A stretch of DNA of 31,455 nucleotides, from IMG/VR virus record IMGVR_UViG_3300026885_000038. One strand, given 5' to 3'. Shown piece after piece: positions 8,212-30,214 of the stretch. Numbering within the stretch: the stretch's first letter is position 1; each line of letters begins with the position of its first letter. The position numbers and the translations under genes were made by a program. Under the pieces are notes generated by a model. It was not told the origin of the DNA, did not search any database, and saw only the letters and a list, made by a program, of their open reading frames with translations. This DNA comes from a virus.

Positions 8212-8928
8212 TTAGGTTCGAGATTCATCCTTTTCGTTCCTCATCTCCCTCAATCTGTACAGAAAGGTGTTATCGACCTCATTTATCTTTTTCACAAGCT
8301 TCAAACCGTTAAGAAATCTGAAATCAGTAAACTTGTCAGCCACCGTCATTAATTGTACAAATCTCAACAACTGTAGCCCGTAATAGTTGCGTATGCCCGT
8401 ATCCCACAAGGTATATAACTCGTCCTTATCCACGTTGTCAAACACGCCAGTGTTAAACGCCTGTATCAACAACGTTTTGTAGCTAACGTCGGAAACGGCC
8501 TGCCCTCCAACCACAACCTTCCACCAATTCCTAACCTTCACACCTCTAGCCTCAAAGAATGACAATGGTGGTGTGTCAACCCATATCGTCTGTACGGAAT
8601 ACCTTGGTCTATCCTCCTCGATAACCACTAATCCCCTCTCCTTAAAGGGCTTATCAGTCCCATCATACCAGTATGATGGGTGATCCAAGTGTAACACAAC
8701 CTTGTTACCGTCAAAATCTAGTTTTGGATAGTCCTCGTACCTATCCAGTGTAATACAAACGTAACCCAACTCCTCACAAGCCTTCCTTATCGAGTAAGTC
8801 TTCCCACTGCCAGTATGCCCAACAACCTGTATTACGTTTTCGTTTGCCAACTCCTGCTTTATCCTGTCTATTGCCCTGGGCCTAAACGTTGTATCCTTTG
8901 GTTTAGATGTGGAGGACAATTCTATCAC
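8212..8928 (-). CDS. P-loop ATPase resembling a degenerate RFC large subunit
   Basis: GHTGSGKT followed by ACEELGY. No clear DExD Walker B. Same operon as the RFC small subunit. Confidence 0.55.
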   Translation of the reverse strand: MIELSSTSKPKDTTFRPRAIDRIKQELANENVIQVVGHTGSGKTYSIRKACEELGYVCITLDRYEDYPKLDFDGNKVVLHLDHPSYWYDGTDKPFKERGLVVIEEDRPRYSVQTIWVDTPPLSFFEARGVKVRNWWKVVVGGQAVSDVSYKTLLIQAFNTGVFDNVDKDELYTLWDTGIRNYYGLQLLRFVQLMTVADKFTDFRFLNGLKLVKKINEVDNTFLYRLREMRNEKDESRT

Positions 8929-9568
8929 CCAAACAGATTATTTGGTAGCCACACACATCACACTTTGAATAGGTACGCTTAAACTCCTTGTCGTTGATCA
9001 TCGTTTCAATCTCCGTAGTAACGTCGAAAGGTTCCACCTCCTCCCAATTGCCCCAATCCAGGAAGACAACGTAAGCCTTGTCCGCATTTACCATCCACGA
9101 GTAAATCGACAACTGGCGTAAAATGTCCTCAGTCACGTAACCATTGTAACCAGTCTTCCAATCAACGATAACATACTTATCCCCAGCCTTCAACAACAGG
9201 TCGATTACACCAACTATCGTAACACCCTTATACTCCTTCGTAATCTTCTTCTCCGAGGCAACAAACCTGTACATTCTCTCCTTCCTCCAAACCTCAAACT
9301 TGGCAAAGTTAAGCAAGGAGTTCTCGATCTGTTCACTGTGTATACTTGAGATGGTGTGGTAAATTTGTGACAACCTTAACTTAATCTCAGTAAGCGTATA
9401 ACCCTCCACATCACCCTTGTAAAATTCCTCAATAATCTTGTGTGTAATCGTACCCCTCTCTAGACTCTCCTTGTAGTATGGGGCAATCTCCTTAAAGCCC
9501 ATTATCTTGTAGTAAGCCATTCTGGGGCATTCGAAGTACATGTTAAGCGTTGTTGGGCTTACCCTCAC
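8903..9568 (-). CDS. Cas4/AddB-like PD-(D/E)xK exonuclease with 4-Cys Fe-S staple
   Basis: ECPR, RGTITH, IDLL, IVDWKTG, QLSIY and CDVCGYQIIC. Confidence 0.9.
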   Translation of the reverse strand: MRVSPTTLNMYFECPRMAYYKIMGFKEIAPYYKESLERGTITHKIIEEFYKGDVEGYTLTEIKLRLSQIYHTISSIHSEQIENSLLNFAKFEVWRKERMYRFVASEKKITKEYKGVTIVGVIDLLLKAGDKYVIVDWKTGYNGYVTEDILRQLSIYSWMVNADKAYVVFLDWGNWEEVEPFDVTTEIETMINDKEFKRTYSKCDVCGYQIICLGDRIVLHI

Positions 9569-10475
9569 TGGTTACCACCTCGTAGAATAACCTAGCGACA
9601 ACACTACTTAACTGTATTAACGGGTTTGCCCCCTCCTTCACAGCCTGCTCAGCCCTAGCCAGCTCCATAAGGCAAACGGCACGATACCTCATATCAAGTT
9701 TTGAGATACTTTGGTAAATCTTTCTAAAGGCTAAGTTGTAGTCCAACCCCAAGTTCGTGTACACATCCTCCAATTGCTTTAAAGCCTCATTCAGATCTCC
9801 CTTCATTGCCAACTGTAACACGGAGTTCATTAGGTTGGGTGATACGAGTAACTTAAGGTAGTTAAGGCTAATGTTACCACCAATAATACTCTGCTCAAGT
9901 AAGTTCATTGTCCTCCTCAGGTCACCCTCACTCAACTCCACAATACCATTAATAACCTGTTGTACCTCTTCCTTACTCTTGAACTTCACGTTCTCCTCCT
10001 TAAGCACCCTAACGATCATCCTTGTAAGTTCGTCCTTTGGTATGGGCTTAAACCTAAACAACGAGCACCTACTTTTTATTGCGTCTATAATGTTACTCTC
10101 ATTGTTGCCAGTAAGTATGAAGTGCGTGCTCTTCGTCTCCTCCATAATCCTCCTTAATGCAAACTGGGCATTCTGTGTCATTGCGTCAAACTCGTCCAGT
10201 AGTATAATCTTCTCCTCTACGTTCATGGCTATTGGCTTTATCCTCTCCCTTATGAACTCCAGTGTCCTGTCGTCACTGGCGTTGAACTCTATAATTGGTA
10301 TACCAGCGTCGTGTGCGAATGCATAGGCAGTACTTGTCTTTCCTAAACCTGGAGGACCTACAAACATGAGGTGTGGAAAGTCCTTTCTCCTAATGAACTC
10401 CTTCAATGCCGCCACTATCTCCTCTTGTCCAACAATCTCATCCAACGTTTTTGGACGGTACTTTTCCGACAACAT
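9543..10475 (-). CDS. rfcS: Replication factor C small subunit (clamp loader)
   Basis: EKYRPKTLDEIVGQ, GPPGLGKT, EFNASD, LDEFD, SRC. ATG 10475 overlaps the polB stop (TAATG). Confidence 0.95.
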   Translation of the reverse strand: MLSEKYRPKTLDEIVGQEEIVAALKEFIRRKDFPHLMFVGPPGLGKTSTAYAFAHDAGIPIIEFNASDDRTLEFIRERIKPIAMNVEEKIILLDEFDAMTQNAQFALRRIMEETKSTHFILTGNNESNIIDAIKSRCSLFRFKPIPKDELTRMIVRVLKEENVKFKSKEEVQQVINGIVELSEGDLRRTMNLLEQSIIGGNISLNYLKLLVSPNLMNSVLQLAMKGDLNEALKQLEDVYTNLGLDYNLAFRKIYQSISKLDMRYRAVCLMELARAEQAVKEGANPLIQLSSVVARLFYEVVTSEGKPNNA

Positions 10476-12655
10476 TACTCCCACAACTCCAGTGTGATAC
10501 CGTTTGTTATTCCCAAATTCTTGAATGGTCCTTCAATGACCGCCTCAATCTGCCTCTTCCAATCCACAATAGGCTTTGGTAACCCGTCATCAACAACACA
10601 CACATCAGCCGAGATTCCGTTTTCGTAACCCTTACACCAAACGTACCTTATCCTACTACCATAACCGTAGTTTTTGTTAAAGTATTTGTTAGCCAGGACT
10701 GCCGCTCTAACGTGCGGCGGAAGGGTTTTGTACTCGTCAATTCTCCTCGTAATACCCCTGTACAAAGCCACATCCTCCAAGGGTAACTCCTTTATCTTTC
10801 GTATGAAGTCATTCTTAACCTGTATTACCTCAGTCATAGGTCTTCCCTCAAGTAGTAGCTCAAACACCTTCTCCTCCAACTCCTGAGTAATCTTGGAGGA
10901 GTCAGTCCTTATCGCCTCAAATCCCTTAATGTCAATCTCGTTAACCTGTTTTCCCTTCTTCCACACAACCTTAGCCGCATACCTCTTCTTCACACCAGTG
11001 AAATAGACTGCCCCCAAGTACTTCTCAAACTTTAGGCTTAAGGTAGGTTCGGACTTCAACGAGTACTTCTCCATGAAGTATCGACGTAGATCATTCGTCA
11101 ACTGCTTGGACAATTCCTCCGCCTTTTCGAAGGGCACTTGTATGAATACGCTGTCTGTGTCACCGTACAACGTTTTATGCCCGTAACGTTTGGACTGTTC
11201 AATAACGTACTGTATACCCTCCCTAGCCAACGCCGTTATTGTACTTGCACAATCCCTGTCGTAAAACCTAGCCTGCGGATGACCCATGTAACCGTATGCT
11301 GAGTTTATTATGTATTTTAAAGCCATCACCTTCTTCTCCAAAGTTTTATACTCCTCGCTATCGCCAGGGTACTTCTTCATCTCATCCTCCAACTCCTCCC
11401 TCCTCTTTAGTAGAATCATAGCTAACTTGGGCATTAACCCCGTCTTATCCTGCCTAAAAGCCCATATCTCATCAGTAATACGCTTTAACTTTGTCTCTGG
11501 AGACACGTTGAAACTAATGATAATGGATGGGTAATACCTCGACATATCTAGGACGGCAACGTTCTCATACCTTCCCGATGGTGGATTTAACACGATTGCA
11601 CCCCTAACGGGGTTCTCATCCCTATCGACACTAGTTGGCAACACCACACCCTCTCTCTTTGCCAACCTAAGTAGTAAAGTGTCAATCACAATACTCGTGT
11701 AATACTGGAATGAGAAGTCCTCCACACCAACTACGTTCTTCAAAGCCTGGTAGTAATCAACAATTGAGTACTTTTTATCTATCATCACAATCCTCCATAC
11801 ATCACGAATGTTGTAACGTATTATCTCGTTGGGATTTTTGTTAACCTTCACAAACTCCACTGCCTCCTCCTTCTTCTCCAATCCCTCCGCAACAGTTACC
11901 TCCTTCAACTTATAACTCCTCGCCCTAACAAACTCCTTATAACCGGAGAGTAAATCCAACTCCAACCATCCGTTGTAAGTAAACTTCACGTTGAGGTGTT
12001 TTGCCCTGGCGTAAAGGTACCTCATGTCAAAACTAACATTCCACGCCGTAACAATATCCACATCCTTTATCAGGTTGTAAACCTCCTGTATCAAGTCCTT
12101 TTCGTTAGTGAAGCTACGGGCGTGGAGGTACAAAACGTACTCCTTGTCGTTTGCAGTTAGCTTGTAGTAACCAGTCCTTTCCTTTGCTACATCATTCAGG
12201 TAATAGGCGTGATAATTACCCTGTATGTGTACTGTCACAGCAACAATCTTGTATATGGGGTTTTCCTCAGAGGGTAATTCACCGTTCTCATTATCCACCT
12301 CAATGTCAATATAGGCAACAACGGGCTTAATCGTACAGGGTTTTGCCTCAAGTGTGTCAATGTCATGGCATTCCTGTATATCCTTGTCTATGAGGTACCT
12401 TCTCACGTAGGGTATATCAGCCTCGTAATGCCTCTCATACTTCTCCCTAGCAGTCCTTACATCAATGGGAGTGTTGACGTAAACCCTATCCAACGGCTCA
12501 CCAAACACACTCCTGTACACCCCAAGTTTTGACGGTACGTAGAAGAATGGTCTGTACTGGTAAACTTTGTACTTTTTACCGCTTTCCGTCCTCCACCAGA
12601 TGCCTATATCTCTCTCGTTTACAACACGGCTAGTTATGTACAAACCAACCGTCAT
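10475..12655 (-). CDS. polB: RNA-primed family B DNA polymerase with proofreading domain
   Basis: IDIE, WNVSFD, YNIRDV, DMSRYYPS, KYIINSAYG, YGDTDS. ATG 12655 overlaps the dpdA stop (ATGA). Confidence 0.97.
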   Translation of the reverse strand: MTVGLYITSRVVNERDIGIWWRTESGKKYKVYQYRPFFYVPSKLGVYRSVFGEPLDRVYVNTPIDVRTAREKYERHYEADIPYVRRYLIDKDIQECHDIDTLEAKPCTIKPVVAYIDIEVDNENGELPSEENPIYKIVAVTVHIQGNYHAYYLNDVAKERTGYYKLTANDKEYVLYLHARSFTNEKDLIQEVYNLIKDVDIVTAWNVSFDMRYLYARAKHLNVKFTYNGWLELDLLSGYKEFVRARSYKLKEVTVAEGLEKKEEAVEFVKVNKNPNEIIRYNIRDVWRIVMIDKKYSIVDYYQALKNVVGVEDFSFQYYTSIVIDTLLLRLAKREGVVLPTSVDRDENPVRGAIVLNPPSGRYENVAVLDMSRYYPSIIISFNVSPETKLKRITDEIWAFRQDKTGLMPKLAMILLKRREELEDEMKKYPGDSEEYKTLEKKVMALKYIINSAYGYMGHPQARFYDRDCASTITALAREGIQYVIEQSKRYGHKTLYGDTDSVFIQVPFEKAEELSKQLTNDLRRYFMEKYSLKSEPTLSLKFEKYLGAVYFTGVKKRYAAKVVWKKGKQVNEIDIKGFEAIRTDSSKITQELEEKVFELLLEGRPMTEVIQVKNDFIRKIKELPLEDVALYRGITRRIDEYKTLPPHVRAAVLANKYFNKNYGYGSRIRYVWCKGYENGISADVCVVDDGLPKPIVDWKRQIEAVIEGPFKNLGITNGITLELWE

Positions 12656-13644
12656 AACCAACCCTCCACGTTCTCCATGTACGACACGTAATCGTAAAGC
12701 CCCTTATCCTTCAACGCCACGTCAATTAAGTTCGAACTGTACAGGTTGTAAACGTGGTCGTAGAAATCCAGTAACCTCCACAGGTTGTGTAGTGTTAGCT
12801 TTACATACCAGTTGATGTCTATGTAAACGTCCTTCGTAAAATTAAACCTAGTACAGACTGGGCAATGGCACCTAACCTCAGATGAATACCTCTTGCCAAT
12901 GTAAATAGCCGAATTCTGTGTGTAAAACCTTCCGTATGCCGCCGCCATGCTGTACTTGCTACTATCCATACTTATCAGCTCAAAGTAATTCCTCTTCAGT
13001 AAGGCCGCACTAATTAGCATCGCACCCTCATTACCAGCACCAAGCAAGTGTATCTTTTTAACACCGTTTTGGTAAAGGTATAACATTTGCCTAACCATGG
13101 TGGCGTAGTTTGTAGTCGGTCTAAAGGCTATTGCCACACCCTCAAGGTCATCAACGTAATCCCTTATTGCGTACTTGTACCAAATTTCAATCTGTTCTAA
13201 AGTATCACCGTGTAGGATACCCCACAGTGGCTTATCCACCTTATCCAACATAATCTTGTTATTTTCACCAGTCATCTTGGCGTAATCCTCAATCTTCTCC
13301 AGGCTAACAGACTCCATGGTATCGTTAACTCCTGCAGGTGCGTAGTCCAAACTTAAAGCCCAGTCCGCATACTCGTTCTGAAAGTCAATCAGCTCATTGA
13401 TATTCACGGATAAGCCTATAGTGAAGGTTTGCAACCCACCACTATCAACGAAGACAAAGGCGTTACAGTCCTTCAACAATTCCTTCCTTAACTTTGCCTT
13501 AGTTTGTTTCGCAGATCCATAGGATAACATTACCTTCTTGTATCCTATCGGTGATTCGTCGCACCAGTAAATCATCTCCTTTGGCAAACTGTGTAGTACC
13601 GCTAAGTAACTACCCGTAATAGCTGGAAAGAAGTACAGATTCAC
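12652..13644 (-). CDS. dpdA: TGT-fold guanine transglycosylase, DpdA-like (probable DNA base exchange)
   Basis: VDSGG, LDY, IHLLG, MDSS and zinc site CHCPVC..HN. Catalytic barrel only, no PUA extension. Coupled to polB. Confidence 0.8.
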   Translation of the reverse strand: MNLYFFPAITGSYLAVLHSLPKEMIYWCDESPIGYKKVMLSYGSAKQTKAKLRKELLKDCNAFVFVDSGGLQTFTIGLSVNINELIDFQNEYADWALSLDYAPAGVNDTMESVSLEKIEDYAKMTGENNKIMLDKVDKPLWGILHGDTLEQIEIWYKYAIRDYVDDLEGVAIAFRPTTNYATMVRQMLYLYQNGVKKIHLLGAGNEGAMLISAALLKRNYFELISMDSSKYSMAAAYGRFYTQNSAIYIGKRYSSEVRCHCPVCTRFNFTKDVYIDINWYVKLTLHNLWRLLDFYDHVYNLYSSNLIDVALKDKGLYDYVSYMENVEGWL

Positions 13645-14123
13645 TGACTACACCTCCTTGTAACCATAACACTGTTGTTTCGTATTCCTCTCATTAACAC
13701 ACAGTAGTGTTTACCAGTAACCTCAACACTTAGCCGTTTTGGTTGAAGACAGGAATGGAGTATCTCGTAAAGTAAGCTAGTGTATTCCTCCTGTACTCTG
13801 GGATACCTGGCTAAGTCCCTTGCTATTCTACTGAACTTCGACATGCCCAGTATCCTTCCGTTGGGTACGTACACGATCTCTATCTTCATATCCACTGGAA
13901 GGAAGTGGTGTGGGCATAACATGTATGTATCTTTAACTACAATCTTAACCTCTCCTTGATGGTTGCTTGGGAAGGTTACACAGTACTTCTCCTTTATCTC
14001 CTCCAACGGGATGAGGGTAGTATACTCCTCCAGCCACCTCTGCATCCTCAATGGTGTCCTGCTGAAGTGTGGGTCGCTTAGATCTACGTTTTTAAATACG
14101 TCAATAGCCCCTTTCTCTGCCAT
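13641..14123 (-). CDS. folE: GTP cyclohydrolase I
   Basis: LCPHHFLP, GMSKFSR, VQE, HYCVLMRG. Confidence 0.93.
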   Translation of the reverse strand: MAEKGAIDVFKNVDLSDPHFSRTPLRMQRWLEEYTTLIPLEEIKEKYCVTFPSNHQGEVKIVVKDTYMLCPHHFLPVDMKIEIVYVPNGRILGMSKFSRIARDLARYPRVQEEYTSLLYEILHSCLQPKRLSVEVTGKHYCVLMRGIRNNSVMVTRRCSQ

Positions 14124-14784
14124 GTGCCACCACGTGTATCTGTAAGTATGCCTTGAACATTGTATACCTTTGACTTACCAGGTCAAACAACCTCGTAAAC
14201 ATGTTGAGGTCGCTTGTGGTTACGTAAACGGGGTAATCCCTCAACAACATGGCGTAGTCCTGCAATATCTCATCTAGGTCTTCCGGTAGCTTACTCGTTA
14301 CGAACTTAAATATCGTCCTATCTGGGCTATACTCGTTATTGGCATACCTGTAATTCACCCCTGAACTTCTCAGCTTTGGAGAGACAGCCCAGTAAACCTT
14401 GGAGTGATCACTGTTCAATGCCTTCTGTATCTCATCGGGTATTCTAACCGTGCCATTCGTCTCTATCACAAACGCCTCGAATCTATTGTACAACTTTTTG
14501 TACAATGAATAAACTTGTGTTATGTACATCGTAGGCTCCCCACCCGTTATCACAAGTACTCTAATTCCCTTCTGTTTGCTTACATCAGCCACCCACTTTG
14601 CTATACTGTCAATATCTCGTAAAGTATAGTCACCCGTATCGTAGCTGTACTTAGTGTCACACCAAACGCACCTTAAGTTACATCCGTAGAACCTAAGGAA
14701 GGTTGATGGGTAACCCCACAACGGTGGCTCGCCGTTAATACTAGTAAACACCTCGTTGACTGGTAACGCATTAGTTGACGGCAT
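14101..14784 (-). CDS. queE: 7-carboxy-7-deazaguanine synthase (radical SAM)
   Basis: EVFTSINGE, RFYGCNLRCVWCDT, ITGGEP, IETNGT, VSPK. Confidence 0.95.
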   Translation of the reverse strand: MPSTNALPVNEVFTSINGEPPLWGYPSTFLRFYGCNLRCVWCDTKYSYDTGDYTLRDIDSIAKWVADVSKQKGIRVLVITGGEPTMYITQVYSLYKKLYNRFEAFVIETNGTVRIPDEIQKALNSDHSKVYWAVSPKLRSSGVNYRYANNEYSPDRTIFKFVTSKLPEDLDEILQDYAMLLRDYPVYVTTSDLNMFTRLFDLVSQRYTMFKAYLQIHVVAHGRERGY

Positions 14785-14786
14785 GA

Positions 14787-15197
14787 CTATTCCACCACTA
14801 CGTTGTAGTTTATTCTGGATTTATCGTTTTCTTCCACCTTTATGGAGTAGGACTGTACTTTAGCCTTCCTACTGTTCACCTTCTTTATTATCTCACCAAA
14901 GGGTATGGCAGATTCAAGGTACATGGCAAGTCTTTCTGCCGATGCGTTATCCCCAACGTAATCGTTTAACGACTTGTGATCAATCCCATCAATCACCGGT
15001 TTCACGTACTCGTCCAACTCCATAAAGTCCATATAATAACCTACCTCCGGTAATTCAGTAATATCGGCTGTGATACAGATTGTTATCAAGTAGTTATGCC
15101 CATGTAGATTACGGCATTTAGTGTCGTGTGCCAACGCTATCCTATGTGCCATACTAGCCCTGTAATCTTTACAAATCTCTAGTATTCTTTGCGTCAT
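14787..15197 (-). CDS. queD: 6-carboxy-5,6,7,8-tetrahydropterin synthase
   Basis: AHRI, CRNLHGHNY, MDF, IDHKSLND, SAERLA. Confidence 0.95.
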   Translation of the reverse strand: MTQRILEICKDYRASMAHRIALAHDTKCRNLHGHNYLITICITADITELPEVGYYMDFMELDEYVKPVIDGIDHKSLNDYVGDNASAERLAMYLESAIPFGEIIKKVNSRKAKVQSYSIKVEENDKSRINYNVVVE

Positions 15198-15364
15198 CAG
15201 TCCTCACCTAAGTCCCTTCTCACCAAGTCCCGTATGTACTCTGCGTACGTCCTGTATCCCTTCTCTTTCATACTTCTATCCACTCTTGCCCTCCATTCTG
15301 ACGGTAGGGACACCGTCAGAACCCATAGATCCTTCGTTTTTTCTAAACTTTTTTCTTCATACAT
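15197..15364 (-). CDS. Ribbon-helix-helix (CopG/NikR-like) transcription regulator, 55 aa (not in ORF track)
   Basis: Translated by hand: MYEEKSLEKTKDLWVLTVSLPSEWRARVDRSMKEKGYRTYAEYIRDLVRRDLGED*. TGATG overlap with queD. TTTTTATA box at 15387-15394. Confidence 0.85.
   Translation of the reverse strand: MYEEKSLEKTKDLWVLTVSLPSEWRARVDRSMKEKGYRTYAEYIRDLVRRDLGED
15296..15321. repeat. Perfect 10-bp inverted repeat inside the RHH gene
   Basis: TTCTGACGGT-AGGGAC-ACCGTCAGAA. Confidence 0.9.
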
Positions 15365-15378
15365 TGAGTAAAAAGGGC

Positions 15379-15403
15379 GACACTAATATAAAAAGTCTGT
15401 GTT
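15379..15403 (-). promoter_or_regulatory. Promoter of the RHH-queD-queE-folE-dpdA-polB operon, with an AACACAG motif
   Basis: TATA at 15387-15394. ACAC and GTGT half-sites flank it. Confidence 0.65.
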
Positions 15404-15428
15404 TTCTACCCAAAAACTATGGAATTAT

Positions 15429-16358
15429 TCAGTCATACCACCAATTGTGGTATTCACAAGTATTACAACCTATTCCCCTCTGCTTCAACACGGAACAGGA
15501 GGCTGGGAATAGCTTCTTCTGCTTCACCTTTTCATACAACTTGATGACGTGGTATTTACTTATATTGTAGTCGAAATTCTCCCATCCCATCTTCCTCAAA
15601 ATGTTGACAACACTCTCAACATCGTAACCAAGGTAGATTAGCTCAAGGGCAAACTGCGTCCTTATAAAGTGATCAGGTTTCTTAGTGTACGCCTGTCTAA
15701 AAACACAAGGTCGTACAATCTCACTAACCGTACTTAACTCCACATCGTCAATCTTGTAACTAGTAACCTCAAAGGACACGTCCTTAACCTTCCTACTGTA
15801 ATCTACATAAACGGTTATGTCGTACTCCTTGCCGTGATGGATGATGAGAGGATTCGGATGTTCACTGTCCTTAAGTATAGTGTTGAAATCGGCATGACAC
15901 GGCACGTAGGTGCAATACCTTCCGTTTAAGTGAATTGTGTTTGGTATACGAATCAGTCCATTACCCGTAGCCAACCTTATGCTGGTGTTGTAGTCCCAAC
16001 TTTTTAACTGTAATTCATCTCGTATGTAGTTTATAAATCCCATAAAATACAGTTTTGTCATTTCATTCAATGGGATCGGCTTTATCTTCAGATAGAAGTG
16101 AAAACCCTTCCTTCCACTAAAAACGTGTACGTGTTGAAAATCACTAAAGTACTCACAAAGGGCGTTGTTGTCCTCATAACTAGTAACACCATCCAAGTCA
16201 AAGATGAAGTAGTTAATTTGGCTAGAGAATTTGTAGGGGTTATAAAAAAGATTTGCAATACCATTATACCTGTTTATTACGGGTTGTATATCATCCACTA
16301 CCTTTCTAAAAAACTTACCTCCGTTTTCAATACCAACCTCAAACTTCAATCTCCTCAC
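15429..16358 (-). CDS. AEP primase (PriS-like) fused to a PriL-like C-terminal Fe-S domain
   Basis: FDLD, SGRKGFH, IRIPNT, then RPC..H..R..SC..L...G.C..C. GTG start overlaps the PCNA stop. Confidence 0.85.
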   Translation of the reverse strand: MRRLKFEVGIENGGKFFRKVVDDIQPVINRYNGIANLFYNPYKFSSQINYFIFDLDGVTSYEDNNALCEYFSDFQHVHVFSGRKGFHFYLKIKPIPLNEMTKLYFMGFINYIRDELQLKSWDYNTSIRLATGNGLIRIPNTIHLNGRYCTYVPCHADFNTILKDSEHPNPLIIHHGKEYDITVYVDYSRKVKDVSFEVTSYKIDDVELSTVSEIVRPCVFRQAYTKKPDHFIRTQFALELIYLGYDVESVVNILRKMGWENFDYNISKYHVIKLYEKVKQKKLFPASCSVLKQRGIGCNTCEYHNWWYD

Positions 16359-21914: not shown

Positions 21915-22208
21915 TCAATCGTACAGAATACGTAACAACACTAGCTTTGTGGGTAGTTTACCGTGGTGTTTCCTCCTTAGATGAGACAACCACTCATCGA
22001 CATTCTTGAAGGTACTATACTGTACATAATCCCCAAGTATTTTTCGTACATCACCATTCCTCAAGTCTACAACCTTTACGACCCTAGCCCTCACCCTTTC
22101 GTTCACCCTCACAATTCTACCAGGAGGAAGAGTCTGATTCCTAACAATGGCGTAGAAATCAGGTGTGGAGAGTAAATAACGAAAAAACCTTTCGTTCTCC
22201 ACCTTCAA
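21915..22208 (-). CDS. ASCH/PUA-like small protein, 97 aa
   Basis: Basic beta-rich N-half, then DYVQYSTFKNVDEW (compare ASCH SGFxSxxEW). TTG start 6 nt after the gat-queC stop. Confidence 0.5.
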   Translation of the reverse strand: MKVENERFFRYLLSTPDFYAIVRNQTLPPGRIVRVNERVRARVVKVVDLRNGDVRKILGDYVQYSTFKNVDEWLSHLRRKHHGKLPTKLVLLRILYD

Positions 22209-22214
22209 CAGGTA

Positions 22215-23591
22215 CTATTGCATGACTGGATCTTTTAAACCATTTATCTCAAAGGCCTTCTTTCTCATAAAACACGGTCCACACCTACCACAGTGTTTCT
22301 TCCTCCCCTCATAACAACTCCACGTAAGCTCGAAGGGTACTTTCAGCTCATAACCTAGCTTTACAATCTCATGTTTCATTAGATTTCCAACTGGCATCAA
22401 CAACCTTATTCTCCTCCTTGGTTCAGTTGCCAATGGTAAAACCCTGTCCAACAGGATGTTAAACTCCATCTCATTATCTGGATAGGCACCTGATTCCTCC
22501 AGGTTTATCCCAGTACCAACTGCGTCAAACCCGTTAGCCTCAGCCAACGCCACTGCGACACTAATGAAGACTAGATTTCTAGCTGGTACCCACTCGTATG
22601 CGTACTCTGCCCCAACAATTCCTCCCCTATCTTTCGCTATTGGTATCTTACTACCCTTAAGTAAGTTAGTCCCTCCAATAACCTTGAACATGGAGGAGGT
22701 ATCCATTGTGATCAACTCAAGGTTGTAGTATTCCGAGATTTTCTTTACAGCCGTGAGCTCAGGTCCCTCAGCCTTATGATGGTAATTGAAGTGTAGTAAC
22801 GTAACCTTATGCCCCTCATTCAGTAGTTTTGCCGTAGCCACAGTACTATCCAGCCCACCACTGGCTATCATTAACGCCTTCATCTGTTCAGCCGTCCTCA
22901 ACAGGTTATACTTAGTAAAGCTATCTTGCGAGAAACAATACATTGTGTAAGGCTCAACATACGTTGTGTTCACCTTACTGTAAACCTCACGGGGATAGTA
23001 CCTCTCCAAGGACGTGATAACTAAGTAATTATTCTCAAAGTCGTTGTGTATGTAGGCGGGCTTATAGTCTACACTAACGCATAGCTCTCCCCTTCTCACA
23101 TTTGTGAAGACCATGGCGTGCGATCCCCTAAACTCCTCCGAGAGGAATTTACTCACACCCTCGTAAGACCCAATCCTTGAGAATATACGTGGTAAGACGG
23201 CACTGTCGACGTTTGTATCCAGTATTAAACCGTACTTCTGTATCAGCTCCTTATCGTTTGCAACCACACCGTTGTGTGAAACAATCCAGTCGTTATATTG
23301 AAAGGGTTGGATATCCTTTGGGCTTTTGTTAGGTACGTACTCCGTTGTCGGCTCAGCCCTATTATTCCCTATAATCATCTTAGGTTTCATCCTAATCAGG
23401 AAGTCCTTGACAATGTCGTAGTCAGGTGTACCAGTACCCTTCAATGTTTCAACCTCTCCATTCTCCCTTATTGCGTAAACCCCCCAACTATCCCTTCCTC
23501 TGTCTGAACTATCTACAAAGGATTTGGAGATCTTACTCGCCTTCTTGTCATCCAACTCCTCACGAAGGTAGACACCGAATATGCTACACAT
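22215..23591 (-). CDS. queC: GAT-QueC fusion (class II glutamine amidotransferase plus preQ0 synthase; archaeosine-forming)
   Basis: N-terminal MC, RGRDS, HNG, VDS. QueC motifs SGGLDS, VPARN, YPD and SCY..HCGRCGPC. Confidence 0.95.
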   Translation of the reverse strand: MCSIFGVYLREELDDKKASKISKSFVDSSDRGRDSWGVYAIRENGEVETLKGTGTPDYDIVKDFLIRMKPKMIIGNNRAEPTTEYVPNKSPKDIQPFQYNDWIVSHNGVVANDKELIQKYGLILDTNVDSAVLPRIFSRIGSYEGVSKFLSEEFRGSHAMVFTNVRRGELCVSVDYKPAYIHNDFENNYLVITSLERYYPREVYSKVNTTYVEPYTMYCFSQDSFTKYNLLRTAEQMKALMIASGGLDSTVATAKLLNEGHKVTLLHFNYHHKAEGPELTAVKKISEYYNLELITMDTSSMFKVIGGTNLLKGSKIPIAKDRGGIVGAEYAYEWVPARNLVFISVAVALAEANGFDAVGTGINLEESGAYPDNEMEFNILLDRVLPLATEPRRRIRLLMPVGNLMKHEIVKLGYELKVPFELTWSCYEGRKKHCGRCGPCFMRKKAFEINGLKDPVMQ

Positions 23592-23593
23592 GA

Positions 23594-23625
23594 GTGTGTG
23601 TTACACACAGTAACTTAAAAAGTTT
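23594..23625 (-). promoter_or_regulatory. gat-queC promoter AAACTTTTTAAG with palindromic GTGTGT-GTT-ACACAC operator
   Basis: TATA at 23615-23622. Inverted repeat 23594-23608. Same layout as the 19009-19039 promoter. Confidence 0.7.
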
Positions 23626-23749
23626 CAGTTTTTGAAGATTCAGAAATTGTTGTAATTAACCTGAATTTAGCCTCCTCCTTTCCATCCACAATCTAGCCTT
23701 ACCCATGAGTTTTTAACTTTCTGGTATTGAGGGCAGTACCGACATTTTG

Positions 23750-23769
23750 AACCCCCAAAAAGTTAAGTA
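23750..23769 (+). promoter_or_regulatory. Promoter AACCCCCAAAAAGTTAAGTA for the GT gene at 23791
   Basis: 22 nt to ATG. Near-identical to the 1506-1528 promoter. Confidence 0.65.
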
Positions 23770-23790
23770 CTTGTCGTATGAGTAAACTTC

Positions 23791-24873
23791 ATGAAAGAAA
23801 AGGTAATGATTGCGTCAGATGGGCCAAACTTTAACACGGGTTACGGAAAGCTTGGTAGAGTTTTAACGAATGGGCTGATAGCAAACGGTTACGATGTCTC
23901 ATACGTGTCATTCCAACATCAAGGTAATCCTCTTTACTATATTTTTATGAACCAGAAGGTCAAGGTTTACAGTGGTTTAACCCAACAACTGATCGAAGAG
24001 GCGGTGAGAGAGTTTAAGCCCGATGTGCTAATACACATAAGGGATCCGGTAGTACACACAGAATACTACAAGTATCCCTATCAATTCGACAGGATAAGGA
24101 AGAGTACAAAGACTATAGGATATTTAATGGTTATGCACGATTACTTCGACTCTAAGGTAATGAAGGCGATCTTCGTTAATTATGACATTGTTGCAACCCC
24201 AACGGAATGGGGTAGGAGAGTGTTAGTATCGTCTGGTATGCCGATCAACCTAGTGTACACCGTTAAACCGTGGATACCTAGACCTGTAAAGCCAGAGAAG
24301 GTACAGGGACTTCCGGATAAATACCTCCTGTTCATAGGTGTGAATGACGATAAGAGAAAGAACCACGCGCTCCTATTACACGTTTTAAGCAGGTTACCAG
24401 AGGAATACAAGCTGTTTTTACTAAGTAGTAGTGGTGCGTACATACTTGAGAGTATAATAGAGAGATATGCCTTGTACAACAGAGTTTACACTCCCCAATC
24501 CTATCTGAAGGGTTACGGTCTTACGGAGGAGGAGTTGGCGTACGTTTACTTGAATGCACACGTATACGTAACCTTATCCTCCCTGGAGGGGATAGACATG
24601 CCGGCGTTAGAGGCGTTAACCTACAACACTCCCGTGGTCGCGAGTGAAATACCAGTCCACAAGGAGTTACTATCTCCTTACGCAAAATTTGTGAAGGTTA
24701 ACCTTGGTTACCCTGATACAAGTGGAGTGTACTGGATCCCGGACTTGGATGACGCAGTGGAGAAGATAATGTCAATAGGAGAGACAAGGCATAAATATGG
24801 TAGGAAGGTGTACTCGACTTACAACGTAAATAGAGCGATAGGTGACTTCAAACAGCTGTTCAATCTCGCTTGA
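23791..24873 (+). CDS. GT-B fold (GT4-like) glycosyltransferase
   Basis: TGYGK, KRKN, EGIDMPALEAL (Ex7E). Confidence 0.9.
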   Translation: MKEKVMIASDGPNFNTGYGKLGRVLTNGLIANGYDVSYVSFQHQGNPLYYIFMNQKVKVYSGLTQQLIEEAVREFKPDVLIHIRDPVVHTEYYKYPYQFDRIRKSTKTIGYLMVMHDYFDSKVMKAIFVNYDIVATPTEWGRRVLVSSGMPINLVYTVKPWIPRPVKPEKVQGLPDKYLLFIGVNDDKRKNHALLLHVLSRLPEEYKLFLLSSSGAYILESIIERYALYNRVYTPQSYLKGYGLTEEELAYVYLNAHVYVTLSSLEGIDMPALEALTYNTPVVASEIPVHKELLSPYAKFVKVNLGYPDTSGVYWIPDLDDAVEKIMSIGETRHKYGRKVYSTYNVNRAIGDFKQLFNLA

Positions 24874-25117: not shown

Positions 25118-25465
25118 TTAGATGTTACCAACCCTTCCATATACGAAGTAGTAGCCCAAGGTTACGCTCACGCTACCTCCCTCAGTCATCAAACCTAGGT
25201 ATTTTGAAGGACCTATCCTCAATACTCCCTCGTCATGTTGTTCAACATAGGTTGGCGAGGAAGGTGTAACGGTTACCTCCTGAATGACCACAGTACCACT
25301 ATAAATTTGTAATGTGACGGTACCTAAACCAGCCCTTGAGTCCAAGCTAAGCTGTATCTTGTTAATAACCAGGGACTGGTTATTCATTGTTGACGCAACT
25401 GTTGCCATCACAGTACCTACGAGATGCCTACTGTAAATTATATCGTAAACCTGTACCTCATCCAC
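25118..25465 (-). CDS. Beta-rich putative virion protein, 115 aa
   Basis: Alternating hydrophobic strands and low charge. Last gene of a four-gene operon. Confidence 0.5.
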   Translation of the reverse strand: MDEVQVYDIIYSRHLVGTVMATVASTMNNQSLVINKIQLSLDSRAGLGTVTLQIYSGTVVIQEVTVTPSSPTYVEQHDEGVLRIGPSKYLGLMTEGGSVSVTLGYYFVYGRVGNI

Positions 25466-26213
25466 TTCCTATCCCCTCCTTTATTACTTTCAACGCCTCA
25501 TCCTTAGTACTATTTAACACAAGACTGGGATTTATTGGTGTTACTCCGTAAGTGTTATACTCGTTAATCGTGTACGATGAGGCACCACCAACAATTAGCT
25601 TCTTCGTGTTCTCCCTCGTAAACATGTCATAAACAATCTCCGTATTTGTTATCTTATTCACAATCATCCTATTTACAACAAACCTAAAGAGGGGAGATAT
25701 TGGGACTGTAGTGGGGTTGACTAGCCCGAACGCCACCTCAAGACCGTATGGTACTGCAATCTGGGTGTACGGGCTAGGATTATTAAGTGGGCTTTGGTAT
25801 CCGTCAATAAAACCAAATTGGTTGTAGCTGGAGTTCCATGTCGCAACGTCAAGCCTCCCCTGTGCAACGTTTGCGGGTTGGTAGATGTAGACACGTGTGT
25901 AACTTGGTGCTACACCGAAGAATAACTGTAGAAGGTTGTTTGCCTTATCAACCTTGAAGACGTCGTTTGGATTACCAGTTATGTATCTAGATCCGAACAG
26001 GACGTCAGCGGCAATCGTCAAACTTGTAATACCATTCCCCTGAGGACTTGCCGCTAACGGAGACTGTAATGCACCCTCGGTTACAGGATCGTAGATAAAG
26101 CTGTAGGGAATGTCACTATCAACAACTACCAGAGGGACGTAACCCTGTGGAAAGACTAGAAAAAATTTGTCACTTGGCTTTAAAAGGTAAGTATCCAGAT
26201 TCATAGCCCTCAC
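25458..26213 (-). CDS. Putative capsid protein, 251 aa (ATG alternative at 26204)
   Basis: Beta/Pro-rich, low charge, co-transcribed with the 235-aa gene. Confidence 0.45.
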   Translation of the reverse strand: MRAMNLDTYLLKPSDKFFLVFPQGYVPLVVVDSDIPYSFIYDPVTEGALQSPLAASPQGNGITSLTIAADVLFGSRYITGNPNDVFKVDKANNLLQLFFGVAPSYTRVYIYQPANVAQGRLDVATWNSSYNQFGFIDGYQSPLNNPSPYTQIAVPYGLEVAFGLVNPTTVPISPLFRFVVNRMIVNKITNTEIVYDMFTRENTKKLIVGGASSYTINEYNTYGVTPINPSLVLNSTKDEALKVIKEGIGSG

Positions 26214-26220
26214 ATAATTC

Positions 26221-26562
26221 TTAGTTACCCTCCACTAATAAGGTTATTACACCGTTTATGGTCCCTGTCGGAGCCTCTGTCACCACTCCACCGGAGATTT
26301 GTTGTACGTATATGTGTATTCCATTTGTCTGTGGGGCTTGCTTCCCAACCGTACCGGTACTTAAACCGGTATTCACAACGGCAACGTGGTAAGCGACCGT
26401 ACTAACGTTACTCTTTACACCGAGGACACCGGCGTTAGTAACAGCCTGTAACTTACTGGAGTGGATTATTACTCCTCCCTGTCCTGCAACATAATAAACG
26501 TTGCTAAAACTCTCTATAATAAGCCTCAAGTTACCTTGATTAACGCTATAGGGAACGCTCAT
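26221..26562 (-). CDS. Small beta-rich putative virion protein, 113 aa
   Basis: V/T/G/N/S-rich and almost uncharged. Confidence 0.5.
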   Translation of the reverse strand: MSVPYSVNQGNLRLIIESFSNVYYVAGQGGVIIHSSKLQAVTNAGVLGVKSNVSTVAYHVAVVNTGLSTGTVGKQAPQTNGIHIYVQQISGGVVTEAPTGTINGVITLLVEGN

Positions 26563-26571
26563 TTAGATCGC

Positions 26572-27279
26572 CTAGGTTTGTTGTAGCAAGTAGGATCCTT
26601 TAGCAAAGGTTAGCCCGAATAACTGTAGGTTACTGGGTCCAGTGGCAATCACGTTACCATAGATGGTGAGGTTAGTGTTCACACCTACGTAAACCAGTCC
26701 TGGGAATTTGTAATAGTACACGTTTGACATTGGTAGGTAGGCGGCGGACTCAACCATATACGTGGTATTCTCAACCCTTACTTGGTACTCACTAACCTTC
26801 GGAGGAAGGGTGTCGATCATTCCGAGTATAGCAAGGGCAACCGTATTTTGCAGTTGCGTAGCCCCACCGTTTGCAAGCCCGGTCTGTCCAGTATTAACCT
26901 GAAAGATTGGTTGCCATCCAGTCGTAGTGAAATTCCTATACCACGAAAGCTGTGGTGTCTGTCCTGGGGCTATGTTGGTATTCATTACAGTTACAGCCCT
27001 TATCAACTGCATTCCTATTTGGGAGGAGGAGGTTGCGGCAAGACCGGCGAAACTGGCCTGTGGTGCAAGCTGTGCCACAGCCTGCTGAGCGATAGAAGCC
27101 AGGACATCACTGTACTTTAACAAGATTTCTCCTAAGTCTCTCTGCAAAGCCGGCATTTCCGCCAACGTTGCCAGATCCCTTATGAATATCTCCTGCTCCT
27201 CTTGCGTAAATGCCCTACCAGTGATCTGGTTTGATGCAGAGATTACCAGTGGTCCTACACTTTGGGTAGGAGTACTCAT
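26572..27279 (-). CDS. Candidate major capsid protein, 235 aa (helical N-arm plus beta-sandwich)
   Basis: First gene after AATATATTTTTAAC (27305-27318). About 75-aa helical N-part, then about 8 beta strands. Confidence 0.5.
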   Translation of the reverse strand: MSTPTQSVGPLVISASNQITGRAFTQEEQEIFIRDLATLAEMPALQRDLGEILLKYSDVLASIAQQAVAQLAPQASFAGLAATSSSQIGMQLIRAVTVMNTNIAPGQTPQLSWYRNFTTTGWQPIFQVNTGQTGLANGGATQLQNTVALAILGMIDTLPPKVSEYQVRVENTTYMVESAAYLPMSNVYYYKFPGLVYVGVNTNLTIYGNVIATGPSNLQLFGLTFAKGSYLLQQT

Positions 27280-27446: not shown

Positions 27447-27830
27447 ATGAATAAGAAAGGTTTGAACTTCAGATCGCCAACGGAGTTCATGAGGGAATTA
27501 AGGGCAACACAAAAACTGATTGGATTAACGGACAACACGTTATTCCTTGAGGCATGTATACGATGCCTTGAGACGAGAACGCTCCCATTCCGTAACATAC
27601 TTAACCTCACTCCAAAGAAGACTCACAACAATGACCCAGTACACACCATTATGTGTAACCCATCGGTGATAAGGAAGATTAAGCTACTTATTTTACAACA
27701 TGATCTAGGGAATGTTTATACGTTATTGTATTACGGGCTAAAGTGCATACAGGGGCAATACGGGGTGAAACTCTCCATAAATGGTAAAAAAGATGATCAA
27801 AGTTCGCAGGTTTTACAACCACCTGAGTAG
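27447..27830 (+). CDS. Putative tandem ribbon-helix-helix protein, 127 aa
   Basis: Two strand-helix-helix patterns ([10 protein letters not shown]..., [10 protein letters not shown]...). Divergent from the structural operon. Confidence 0.4.
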
Positions 27831-30214
27831 GACTCACTTACCTCCACGAACTTCTTCTCCAACCTGAGGTTTGTGGACTGCTTGGCTTTCTCCTCTCTTT
27901 CTTTCTTTATTCCAAAGTATATCACCTGCTGGGACTTACTCTTATCTCTATACACCGTTATCCCCTTTATTCCCAGTTTCCATGCGGTTATGTATACCCT
28001 CTCCACAGCCTCCTTAGTCTCCTCACTTCTCAGGTTTATTGTCTTTGAGGTACCGGAGTCGTTCCACTGTTGCCATGCGGCTTGATGAAGGACGTGAAAG
28101 ATTGGAGGGACTTCGTGGGCAGTCCTGAAAATCCTCTTAAGGGTTTTTGGAATGAATGGATTGTCCCCCACCTCACCAGTCTCGGCTATCTTCTTAACTA
28201 CCTCCGGTGTATCCAACTCGTACCTCCTAAGATACTCAAGGAATAACGGGTCTATCTCCATAAAAGTTCCTACAGCAACACTCCTTACAAAGGCTAGTGC
28301 GAAGAGTGGCTCTATGGAGGAGGACGTACCAGCTATGATGGAGATCGTGCCCGTTGGGGCTACCGAGACCACAGTGGCGTTCCTCAGACCGTACCTCAGC
28401 CTCATGTCCTTCAACGTGGAGAAGTCTAACTTGTCCACCTCTGCCGTCAGCCTCTTTACGTATTCCGATGGCTCGCCCTGTATACCGGCTGTGGAAAACA
28501 GATCCTGTAAATCCCTTACATCCTCCCATATATCCTTGTACCTCACAGGATCGTAGGCTGGGAAGGGGCTTTTCTCCTTAGCCAACTCCACTGAGGTGTG
28601 TAAGGCGTGATAGTAAATGAATCTAGCTAACTGATATGAGAGGAAGACCGCGTCTACGCTGTCGTAGGGTATGCCCAACTTTATCAACATTCTCGCCAAG
28701 CCCATAACCCCCAAACCTACCTTTCTCGTCCTCTTGGTGGCCTCCTCTATCTGTCTCAACGGGTATCTGTTAGCATCAACAACGTTATCAAGGAAACGGA
28801 CGGCGTACCTTATGGTCTCAGCTAGTCCAGCCCAGTCTATCTTGTTGTCCACCACGAACTTCTCCAGGTTCAGGGAACCCAGGTTGCAGGACTCCCAGGG
28901 AAGGAGGGGTTCCTCACCGCAGGGGTTAGTTGCCTGTATCTTGCCCAAGTACCAAACTGGATGTCTCCTATTTATCTCATCAATGAAGAGGAGTCCTGGG
29001 TCACCGGAGTCCCATGCCCCCTTCACTATCTCGTTGAAGAGCATCCTGGCGTCAACCCACTTCACAACAGCCCCTTCCTTTTCAGCTATAACTAACGCCT
29101 CATCCACAGTTACTATTCTACTCTCCTCAAGGTAGATTGAATCCCTCTCCTCCAATTCCCTTAGAATCTCCTCCTGTACCCACTCCTCGTCCATGTAGTT
29201 CCTCGCCCTCACTATGTAGTATTCGTAATCAGTACCAGGTATCCTTGTCCTCCTAGGAGTGATCAGAGGTACCTCCCCTCCGGACTCGACTGCCCTCATA
29301 AAGTAATCGTAAACACCAACGGATATGTTGAAGTTCTGTAAATGTGTATCCTTCAACTCTCCAGTCTTTGCCTTAATGAAGTCCTCTATGTCTGCGTGCC
29401 AAACGTGCATCACGCCCATGTTTGCCCCCCTTCTCTTTCCTCCCTGCTTCACTACATCCGTGGAGACGTCGAAGATCTTCATGAATGATACAGGACCAGA
29501 GGCAACACCCGCAGTTGACGCAACCACATCACCCTTGGGTCTCAATTCTGAGAAGTCGAAACCAGTACCACCACCCTGTTGGTGGACTAACGCCATTGCC
29601 CTCAAGGTATCATATATGCCATCCCCATCCTTGGTGGTCATGGAGTCCTTAACCGGCAGGACGAAACAGGCTGAGAGTATCCCCAGCCTTGTACCAGAAT
29701 TCATCAACGCAGGGGTGTTTGGGATGAACTTAAGGGTTGACATTATCTCGTAGAACTTCTCTTCATATTCCCTCCTCCTCTCCTGGGGTTCTACGCTAGC
29801 CAGGTGCCTAGCCACTCTCCTGAACATCATCTGCGGAGTCTCTATATACCTAAGGGTGTTGGGATCCTTCAGCAAGTACCTAGCCTCGAGGACTTTCAGG
29901 GCATTGTAGCTTATCAGGAGATCCCTCTCGTCAAAGGACTTCCACCCTCCCTTACCGAACACGTGATTATAGATCCTGGCCAGGACAAACTTCTTGGCCA
30001 AATCCATGAGCTCTGGGTTTTCCAGGGAGTTCTCAACTAGGTTCCTCTCCACTATATCGCCTATAACCCTGCTTTCAATAAGGTTATCCTTACTATTTTG
30101 CAACACGTCGTTGTAAATATTCTCGTAAACCTTGTCTGGTAGCTGTAAATGTCTTAACAACTTCTCAGGCTTAAACTCCTGGACTCTGCCGTTCCTTTTT
30201 AAGACTTGTGGCAT
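27797..30214 (-). CDS. nrdJ: Class II (B12-dependent) ribonucleotide reductase with ATP cone
   Basis: VLKRNG ATP cone, PNTP, SACF, TNPCGE, CNLGS, APTG and terminal CKTC. Confidence 0.95.

Follow-up and report, generated by a model that had tools for sequence, protein, structure and literature searches.

Can a mobile element of the Sulfolobales carry the core of a DNA replication machinery of its own? This question is raised by the IMG/VR record IMGVR_UViG_3300026885_000038, a Joint Genome Institute (JGI) metagenome contig of hot-spring origin, which we analyzed over its entire length of 31,455 bp (hereafter, the window). An initial annotation had read it as a large crenarchaeal-type virus of an undescribed lineage with a near-autonomous replisome. 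We found that the window encodes a set of archaeal-type replication proteins, that it is matched by clustered regularly interspaced short palindromic repeat (CRISPR) spacers of Metallosphaera yellowstonensis, and that its polymerase belongs to a distinct lineage. We consider it probable that the contig is an extrachromosomal double-stranded DNA (dsDNA) element of M. yellowstonensis, most likely a virus, from an undescribed lineage.

The replication genes have counterparts in related contigs, and the positions of all features are collected in Table 1. A sister contig (L003; 29.5 kb, European Nucleotide Archive (ENA), with JGI and Logan copies as well) is syntenic with the window from 115 to 22215, with protein identities of 57–85%. 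A 71,414-bp contig (G001:C52, hereafter the 71-kb relative) shares about 15 genes with the window, namely those for the small subunit of replication factor C (RFC-S, 43% identity), the family B DNA polymerase (PolB, 43%), the Sak4-like ATPase (48%), the primase, PCNA, the single-stranded DNA-binding protein (SSB), the Cas4-like nuclease, a DpdA-like protein, a P-loop protein, an S8 protease, a UbiA protein and others. The order SSB-Sak4-PCNA-primase-PolB is kept in relatives, including the 71-kb relative, at 28–48% identity.

The PolB, which the initial annotation had described as RNA-primed, contains both Pfam domains expected of a proofreading enzyme, and its catalytic motifs are intact (Exo I, DIE119; motif A, DMSRYYPS372; motif B, KYIINSAYG449; motif C, YGDTDS499; and KKRY558). 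No match to PF03175, the family of the protein-primed type, was obtained, in agreement with that description. The protein was 32% identical to the best-matching polymerase of M. yellowstonensis MK1. The RFC-S scored 248.8 bits against NF001679, under the equivalog cut-off of 303, and the KYRP box (RFC box II), Walker A (GPPGLGKT), DExD (IILLDEFD), SRC arginine finger and Rep_fac_C collar were all present. It was 39% identical to the RFC-S of the host, and its nearest relatives among described viruses were those of the haloarchaeal tailed viruses HVTV-1 and HCTV (34%). This protein is a clear RFC-S, whereas the second of the two RFC-like subunits that had been proposed, a 238-aa P-loop protein, aligned with RFC over about 75 residues: in an hhalign comparison with the RFC alignment of the lineage (92%, E = 6.6e-7), the match covered 75 N-terminal columns only, comprising the YRP(R/K) box, Walker A and the next strand. 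Profile searches of Pfam, NCBIfam and PDB returned generic P-loop matches only, and a BLASTP comparison with the RFC-S gave nothing significant. The gene is kept beside those for Cas4 and RFC-S in the related contigs L003 and L004 (68% identity) and in the 71-kb relative (24%), and its product is possibly a degenerate, RFC large-subunit-like partner in the clamp loader.

The sliding clamp was recovered by structure prediction. No Pfam, PHROG, NCBIfam or PDB sequence match was obtained for the PCNA candidate. An exhaustive profile search gathered its relatives, and one of the 27 family members matched PCNA_N (at 7e-4), the window protein itself matching neither PCNA_N nor PCNA_C. The AlphaFold2 model of the window protein had a predicted local distance difference test score (pLDDT) of 96.3 and a predicted template-modelling (TM) score of 0.91, and a Foldseek search with this model gave at least 500 matches at E ≤ 0.001. 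All top matches listed were PCNA, archaeal and eukaryotic, over the full length (TM 0.63–0.74, E ~1e-11). The protein is accordingly modelled as a PCNA fold with two similar beta-alpha-beta domains per monomer, in line with the PCNA named by the initial annotation. Modelled in three copies, it reached an interaction prediction score from aligned errors (ipSAE) of 0.82 (best of 3 controls, 0.00), with at least 97% of contacts agreeing between runs and a partner pLDDT of 91; strand 167–177 was paired against 97–103 in the canonical head-to-tail manner. Of proteins with solved structures, 20 of 30 that are pairs of one chain and 1 of 23 that are single chains attain this ipSAE mark, and the pass of the PCNA trimer may reflect memory, because PCNA rings have already been solved. 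In the host, the profile of this family weakly detected two PCNA-sized open reading frames (ORFs; E = 0.002 and 0.008).

The primase claimed by the initial annotation is a protein of 309 aa of the archaeo-eukaryotic primase (AEP) superfamily, with the motifs DxD (FDLD) and SGxKGFH (SGRKGFH) invariant across its family. The window protein itself had no Pfam match, and searches of PHROG, NCBIfam and PDB sequences gave nothing significant for its core; a syntenic ortholog, to which it was 29% identical (E = 1e-39), does match LigD_Prim-Pol (PF21686) and DNA_primase_S (PF01896). Its C-terminal 100 residues gave two weak, mutually consistent matches to PriL (NF002589, E = 0.017; Sulfolobus solfataricus PriL, 5of3_B, E = 0.11), and three of four conserved cysteines were aligned to cysteines of PriL. 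A fusion of PriS with the iron-sulfur C-terminal domain (CTD) of PriL in one chain is plausible on these grounds.

For the SSB, nothing significant was found in Pfam, PHROG, NCBIfam or PDB sequence searches. The AlphaFold2 model (pLDDT 92) showed a helical N-terminus followed by two oligonucleotide/oligosaccharide-binding (OB) folds, and Foldseek matched it to RPA of Pyrococcus abyssi (7.7e-9), Teb1, RPA70 DBD-A/B and tandem-OB bacterial SSBs (probability 1.00). The TM scores were low (0.25–0.40) because the orientation of the OB domains differs. Its feature neighbours in the Atlas were archaeal OB/RPA clusters. These results agree with the earlier assignment, the protein being predicted to have an RPA-like tandem-OB fold and to bind single-stranded DNA. 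The two remaining assignments were borne out by family matches, the Sak4-like ATPase by AAA_24 and phrog_124 and the Cas4-like nuclease by PF12705 and TIGR00372 (cas4; 7e-12, under the cut-off). The cysteines of the nuclease are arranged as one N-terminal residue and a C-terminal CxxC...C.

In a working replisome, the small AEP primase would make primers and the proofreading PolB would extend them, tethered by the divergent, putatively homotrimeric PCNA. The RFC-S would load this clamp, perhaps with the 238-aa P-loop protein or with the large RFC subunit of the host, and the RPA-like tandem-OB protein would coat single strands. The Sak4-like ATPase and the Cas4-like nuclease would most likely act in recombination-dependent replication or in the processing of ends, and a host-derived class II ribonucleotide reductase (RNR) would supply deoxyribonucleoside triphosphates. 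As the initial annotation had noted, no helicase was found across the window, either by domain scans or by comparison with the 71-kb relative, nor were a ligase, a flap nuclease or RNase H detected there. For unwinding, ligation and primer removal, the element would rely on host enzymes (MCM, Lig1, Fen1) or on genes in the part of its genome that the contig lacks. Of nine functions named in the initial annotation, seven were thus confirmed at their positions, the second RFC-like subunit was weakly supported, and the lack of a helicase was borne out. The term near-autonomous is too strong, because the helicase, ligase and primer-removal functions are missing from the window and its RNR was recently taken from the host.

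The replication genes are interleaved with genes for a modified base. The genes for FolE, QueE, QueD and a DpdA/TGT-like transglycosylase sit between polB and the primase gene, inside the replication operon, and the DpdA/TGT-like gene overlaps the start of polB. A gene for a glutamine-amidotransferase–QueC fusion lies among those for sugar-modifying enzymes. Judged from these genes, the 7-deazaguanine pathway looks complete, and the genes that would make and insert the base are held in the same minus-strand array as the replication genes. The 71-kb relative differs in this respect, its DpdA-like gene being accompanied by a QueF/FolE-like gene and one for a Vut_1 precursor transporter.

The RNR, another claim of the initial annotation, is the B12-dependent enzyme NrdJ, with a score above the curated cut-off. 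It was 88% identical in nucleotides and 90% in amino acids to NrdJ of M. yellowstonensis MK1, compared with 64–75% of nucleotides in other genomes of the order, and its N-terminal ATP-cone region was the part most diverged from MK1 nrdJ. The local GC content was 0.50 in the RNR region against about 0.44 elsewhere, and lower in the 3–5 kb region. Since the protein is 90% identical to that of the host, the RNR gene is a recent host-to-element capture, not part of an old viral replication set. In contrast, PolB and RFC-S were 32% and 39% identical to the host proteins, and PCNA was barely detectable in the host. An old, divergent replisome core thus stands beside a very recent RNR capture, indicating two time scales of gene gain.

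The host was identified by a DNA search over 325 genomes of the order. Its first outcome was a pair of short, nearly perfect matches to a single contig of M. yellowstonensis MK1 (genome G292), in a region that proved to be two divergent CRISPR arrays with 53 and 48 repeats and 99 spacers, the repeat ending in the Sulfolobales-type ATTGAAAG. Five of the 99 spacers matched the window (Table 1), and no spacer-like match as long was found in the other 324 genomes of the order. The comparison with Sulfolobales spacers that the initial annotation had suggested therefore linked the window to M. yellowstonensis, an acid-loving archaeon of the Sulfolobaceae, as the most likely host. The best spacer match is to the third spacer from the end of its array, at the end bearing undegenerate repeats. 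No integrated copy was found in the 325 genomes, in which DNA matches were limited to the RNR, queC-like stretches and a fragment of an insertion sequence (IS).

We further examined the position of the polymerase in a maximum-likelihood tree of 85 PolBs (quick search, midpoint rooting; several branches elsewhere than in the clade of interest are long). The window PolB grouped with P0002 (74% identity) and P0003 (59%, from a metagenome-assembled genome (MAG) labelled Metallosphaera) with a support of 100 in the Shimodaira–Hasegawa-like approximate likelihood ratio test. This trio was placed inside a clade of 13 (support 99) and that in turn inside a clade of 47 (support 100), whose PolBs are all on metagenomic contigs, up to 71 kb and one of 214 kb. 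The three polymerases of MK1 (Dpo1/2/3) belonged, together with cellular Thermoproteota enzymes, to the opposite half of the tree, so that the phylogeny proposed as a check showed a distinct and well-supported metagenomic clade apart from the cellular polymerases. No DNA match was found in 50,697 GenBank phage and archaeal-virus records, to none of which the PolB was more than 25.5% identical, and tblastn searches of phage records with the primase and Sak4 gave zero matches. Against 72,556 plasmids (PLSDB), the PolB had only distant haloarchaeal and bacterial matches of at most 29% identity, and against IMG/VR a single-protein scan gave one match of 25% and a profile scan a best match of 35% (L008). 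In the open-access full-text literature, a scope that is no proof of absence, no Sulfolobales virus that combines PolB, PCNA and RFC came to light. On this evidence, the lineage is, by sequence, undescribed in the collections searched. The size claimed for it is seen from relatives only (contigs of up to 71 kb), because the window is the whole contig.

The 71-kb relative carries further genes, including one, adjacent to that for the SSB, whose product is a P-loop protein with DUF3987; the usual context of this domain makes it a candidate helicase. Others encode a further RFC/Rad17-like AAA+ protein, a classical AAA ATPase, an ERCC4 nuclease, a Dam methylase, a tyrosine integrase, a ParA/Mrp-like ATPase (ParA/NUBPL-type) and an AbiEi-like regulator. 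A search of the contig for a helicase, a packaging ATPase and an integrase had been recommended; neither of the former was found in the window, and the tyrosine integrase was seen in the 71-kb relative.

We next consider whether the element forms a virion. In crenarchaeal viruses, sequence comparison routinely fails to reveal the structural genes. A module of four genes (235, 113, 251 and 115 aa) had no Pfam, PHROG or PDB match; its proteins are low in charge and beta-rich. Distant homologs of the 235- and 251-aa proteins, of the same size and about 1.2 kb apart, were detected in the 71-kb relative (G001:C52 11929–14642, L093; E = 6e-5 and 4e-4 in a search of 117 proteins), similar to the score of the true PCNA ortholog in a comparable search (E = 3e-4). 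The nearest Atlas clusters of the 235-aa protein are unnamed and mostly viral (score 0.97). We regard this module as a candidate for virion genes. Its virus-like context further comprises a fibre- or adhesin-like repeat protein, a DNA hypermodification pathway and three proteins similar to those of lipothrixviruses and rudiviruses, all encoded in the window. The SIFV0066-like protein matched 45 Ligamenvirales records, and its gene adjoins that for the RNR in an independent ENA assembly as well; the SIFV0067/68-like block is an insertion relative to the sister, absent at the syntenic site of L003 and L004.

Several observations weigh against the reading of the window as a virus with its own replication core. 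No capsid, portal, terminase, packaging ATPase or Ligamenvirales coat gene was recognised in the window by Pfam and PHROG, and the 68 ORFs of the 71-kb relative contained no capsid, portal, terminase, packaging-ATPase, Ligamenvirales coat or tail family (first 49 kb, Pfam and PHROG; last 22 kb, Pfam only). The contig ends bear no inverted or direct terminal repeats, and the second clamp-loader subunit is no more than a possible one. The five protospacers share no protospacer-adjacent motif in either orientation (5' flanks GGG, TCT, TTT, CCC and TTA), for which escape mutation or motif-independent type III targeting is a possible explanation. Moreover, contigs of the lineage have been binned as Metallosphaera, Micrarchaeaceae, Nanoarchaeia and Desulfurococcaceae, the 71-kb contig being in a Desulfurococcaceae MAG; we read these disagreeing labels as binning noise, while other hosts for the relatives are possible. 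The integrase, ParA/Mrp-like ATPase and AbiEi-like regulator of the 71-kb relative would also fit a large plasmid or integrative element of Metallosphaera that has its own replisome core and DNA modification and is not a virus. Such an element would account for the lack of virion and packaging genes in both contigs, and spacers target plasmids as well as viruses. However, neither conjugation genes (VirB4/TraG-type) nor plasmid Rep genes were found, and the PLSDB comparison gave no PolB relative above 29%. In addition, three genes are 52–59% identical to those of lipothrixviruses and rudiviruses, a fibre-like repeat protein is present and the four-gene module has mostly viral Atlas neighbours, in a group of viruses whose structural genes often escape recognition. 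We regard the plasmid as unlikely. Of the initial description as a crenarchaeal-type virus, the association with Sulfolobales, the extrachromosomal state and the undescribed lineage stood, whereas the viral nature is no more than likely, no virion gene having been recognised.

Three other explanations have far less in their favor. A fragment of a cellular chromosome, either of the host or of a small symbiotic archaeon (Micrarchaeota, Nanoarchaeota), could be suspected from the bins of the relatives (Metallosphaera sp., Micrarchaeaceae, Nanoarchaeia, Desulfurococcaceae) and from the cellular archaeal type of the replication proteins. However, no housekeeping, tRNA or rRNA genes occur in the 31 kb or in the scanned parts of the 71-kb relative, and the flanks, where housekeeping genes would have pointed to a chromosome, carry the three genes similar to those of lipothrixviruses and rudiviruses instead. 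Five M. yellowstonensis spacers target the window, its DNA matches in MK1 and the 324 other genomes are restricted as described above, the bin labels contradict one another, and the PolB falls outside the cellular Dpo1/2/3; a chromosomal origin is highly improbable. The three lipothrixvirus-like genes might instead suggest membership of a described family of the Ligamenvirales, and the similarity of the RFC-S to that of HVTV-1/HCTV (34%), together with the preQ0 pathway of HVTV-1 (PMC6884629), an archaeal tailed family. Against this, the virus records gave no DNA match, no PolB above 25.5% and no counterpart of the primase or Sak4, and no such Sulfolobales virus appeared in the literature searched. 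No Ligamenvirales coat-protein PHROG was matched, though other Ligamenvirales PHROGs matched at 1e-46 to 1e-98, and no inverted terminal repeats were seen; nor was an HK97 major capsid protein, a portal or a large terminase found in the window, which holds an incomplete genome. We therefore consider a described family very unlikely, if a little less so than a chromosome. Least probable of all is a chimeric assembly joining a lipothrixvirus fragment to an unrelated replication island. Lipothrixvirus-like genes do lie near both contig ends and the 3–5 kb region has a lower GC content, but genes in synteny with the sister contig lie to either side of the SIFV0067/68 block, the SIFV0066-like gene stands beside the RNR gene in the independent ENA assembly, and JGI and ENA assemblies of other samples repeat the gene order.

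Returning to the viral reading, a more specific form of it can be proposed tentatively, with a chance that we place somewhat short of even. The window would be the first representative to be recognised of a new lineage, of family rank or higher, of Thermoproteota viruses with an unknown virion, replicating 7-deazaguanine-modified DNA with their own stripped-down archaeal replisome, made up of a single PolB, a homotrimeric PCNA invisible to Pfam, a minimal clamp loader, a PriS-PriL-like primase in one chain and an RPA-like SSB; as part of the same joint proposal, the 47-member PolB clade, on geothermal contigs of 20–71 kb, would be a widespread and unnoticed group of archaeal viruses.

The genome is incomplete, because the sister contig runs on beyond the left end of the window. 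Genes are tightly packed, and those from 8212 to 23591 are all on the minus strand, with starts and stops abutting or overlapping and a strongly negative GC skew. No tRNA genes were found in the window, and domain library scans of its proteins revealed no housekeeping genes and no rRNA genes were found. The gene order is reproduced in JGI and ENA assemblies of other samples. Near-identical elements in independent assemblies reproduce the right half of the window, one sharing its end position, and a 2.6-kb ENA contig has one of its own ends at the left end of the window. Both end positions are thus break points in independent assemblies of other samples as well (L001, L106), for which strain variation, a repeat or a real terminus may be responsible.

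A 112-aa ORF at 1636–1974, not present in the sister contig, has a 69% nucleotide match (1642–1966) to one Sulfolobaceae genome (G279:C1:557543–557866). The non-coding stretch 4630–4887, which adjoins the SIFV0067/68-like insertion, matches many Sulfolobaceae genomes, often in multiple copies (67–82% of nucleotides), and fits the 3' end of an IS200/605-type (tnpB) element. The region 5260–7728 encodes a UbiA-family prenyltransferase and a secreted-type S8 subtilase; both are kept throughout the lineage, with 37–40% identity to proteins of the 71-kb relative (G001:C52 21932–29219), and are unusual cargo for a replication-centred element.

Table 1. Features of the 31,455-bp window and positions matched by CRISPR spacers of M. 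yellowstonensis MK1 (GT, glycosyltransferase)
Feature	Position	Strand	Evidence or remark
312-aa repeat protein	115–1053		~10 tandem copies of a ~19-residue beta-type unit (TPTVLATIEGQPISVTVSN); fibre- or adhesin-like; 70% identical to 302-aa sister protein
SIFV0067 and SIFV0068 homologs	3076–4334	-	phrog_11741 8e-50, phrog_31381 3e-46; 52% to SIFV
Spacer match, S8 protease	7532–7575		43/44
Spacer match, S8 protease	7699–7739		34/41
238-aa P-loop protein, possible degenerate RFC large-subunit-like partner	8212–8928	-	hhalign to lineage RFC alignment
Cas4-like PD-(D/E)XK nuclease, four Cys	8903–9568	-	PDDEXK_1 PF12705 1.1e-20
RFC-S (clamp loader)	9543–10484	-	NF001679 6.7e-74; AAA, DNA_pol3_delta2, Rep_fac_C and lid domains
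PolB, 3'-5' exonuclease, RNA-primed type	10475–12661	-	PF00136 4e-48, PF03104 1e-16
DpdA/TGT-like transglycosylase, FolE, QueE, QueD	12652–15197	-	TIGR00449 2.4e-4, phrog_887; PF01227, PF04055, PF01242; NCBIfam QueE/QueD/FolE
Spacer match, DpdA-like	12886–12924		37/39
AEP primase, PriS-like core, possible PriL-CTD-like Cys4 tail	15429–16358	-	Motifs and syntenic ortholog
PCNA sliding clamp, highly diverged (predicted)	16355–17068	-	AlphaFold2 model and Foldseek
Sak4-like RecA-family ATPase (AAA_24), acidic/Lys-rich N-terminal tail	17071–17985	-	PF13479 7e-9, phrog_124 8e-9
Spacer match, Sak4	17856–17895		39/40
RPA-like SSB, helical N-domain and two OB folds (predicted)	17997–18803	-	AlphaFold2 and Foldseek
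Accessory block: GT2, GT1, NAD-dependent sugar epimerase/dehydratase, 97-aa protein, glutamine-amidotransferase–QueC, GT1	19084–24873	last GT1 on +	Pfam
Glutamine-amidotransferase–QueC fusion	22215–23591	-	QueC TIGR00364 3e-42
Four-gene module (235, 113, 251, 115 aa)	25118–27279	-	Conserved; candidate virion module
Spacer match, four-gene module	25396–25433		35/38
Class II (B12-dependent) RNR NrdJ with ATP-cone	27797–30214	-	TIGR02504 757.8 bits; cut-off 399.95
SIFV0066 homolog, conserved in lipothrixviruses and rudiviruses	30369–31076	+	phrog_6678 1.4e-98; 59% to SIFV

We compared the element with known systems. Self-encoded replisomes are already known in archaeal viruses and have not been reported before in this host group; the viruses compared here, the Aoguangviridae and HVTV-1/HCTV, are all Caudoviricetes of Euryarchaeota. 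The ICTV (International Committee on Taxonomy of Viruses) profile of the Aoguangviridae lists PolB, AEP primase, clamp, clamp loader, MCM and ligase (PMC10768690). Like the window, these Magrovirales are archaeal dsDNA elements known from metagenomes and combine PolB and AEP primase with a clamp and its loader, and they are considered to need little of the host replisome (PMC10768690). They differ in having MCM, an ATP-dependent ligase, an HK97 capsid, terminase and tail genes, none of which was found in the window, and in their hosts, the marine Poseidoniales (marine group II) as opposed to a thermoacidophilic member of the Sulfolobaceae; no close sequence relation was detected, the window PolB being at most 25.5% identical to any GenBank phage or archaeal-virus record.

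HVTV-1, HCTV-1 and HCTV-5 have the nearest described RFC-S and a PolB of their own, and HVTV-1 has a preQ0 pathway with dPreQ1 in its DNA (PMC6884629). However, these are Caudoviricetes of halophiles with genomes of about 102 kb, and HVTV-1 lacks DpdA, whereas a DpdA/TGT-like gene abuts polB in the window. No counterpart of the window primase, Sak4, PCNA or SSB was detectable in HVTV-1/HCTV by tblastn. The Lipothrixviridae and Rudiviridae share the host order and the three genes similar to SIFV0066/67/68, and some Ligamenvirales encode enzymes of the 7-deazaguanine pathway (PMC6884629). They differ in that none was among the PolB or RFC matches listed and that neither their coat protein nor inverted terminal repeats were found in the window. 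The genes held in common are accessory, two of them being the insertion that is absent from the sister contig.

The replisome of the Sulfolobaceae has the same functional parts and catalytic motifs, and an RFC-S that is 39% identical. PCNA of the Sulfolobales is a heterotrimer, whereas the window has a single PCNA that is predicted to form a homotrimer. Compared with PriSLX and Dpo1/3 of the Sulfolobaceae, the window primase is one chain of 309 aa, the SSB is of a tandem-OB, RPA-like type, and the PolB (32%) falls outside their clades.

Among the PolB and RFC matches listed from the GenBank phage and archaeal-virus collection, no Sulfolobales virus was present. Whether the polymerase suits modified templates is a question prompted by the interleaving of the modification genes with those for the polymerase and the primase. 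The profile-invisible clamp and the putative one-chain primase would be compact, thermostable proteins for biochemistry, and M. yellowstonensis MK1 is a cultivable host in which the element and its particles could be sought. A Metallosphaera element with its own PolB, PCNA, RFC, primase and RPA would alter the view of how crenarchaeal mobile elements replicate.

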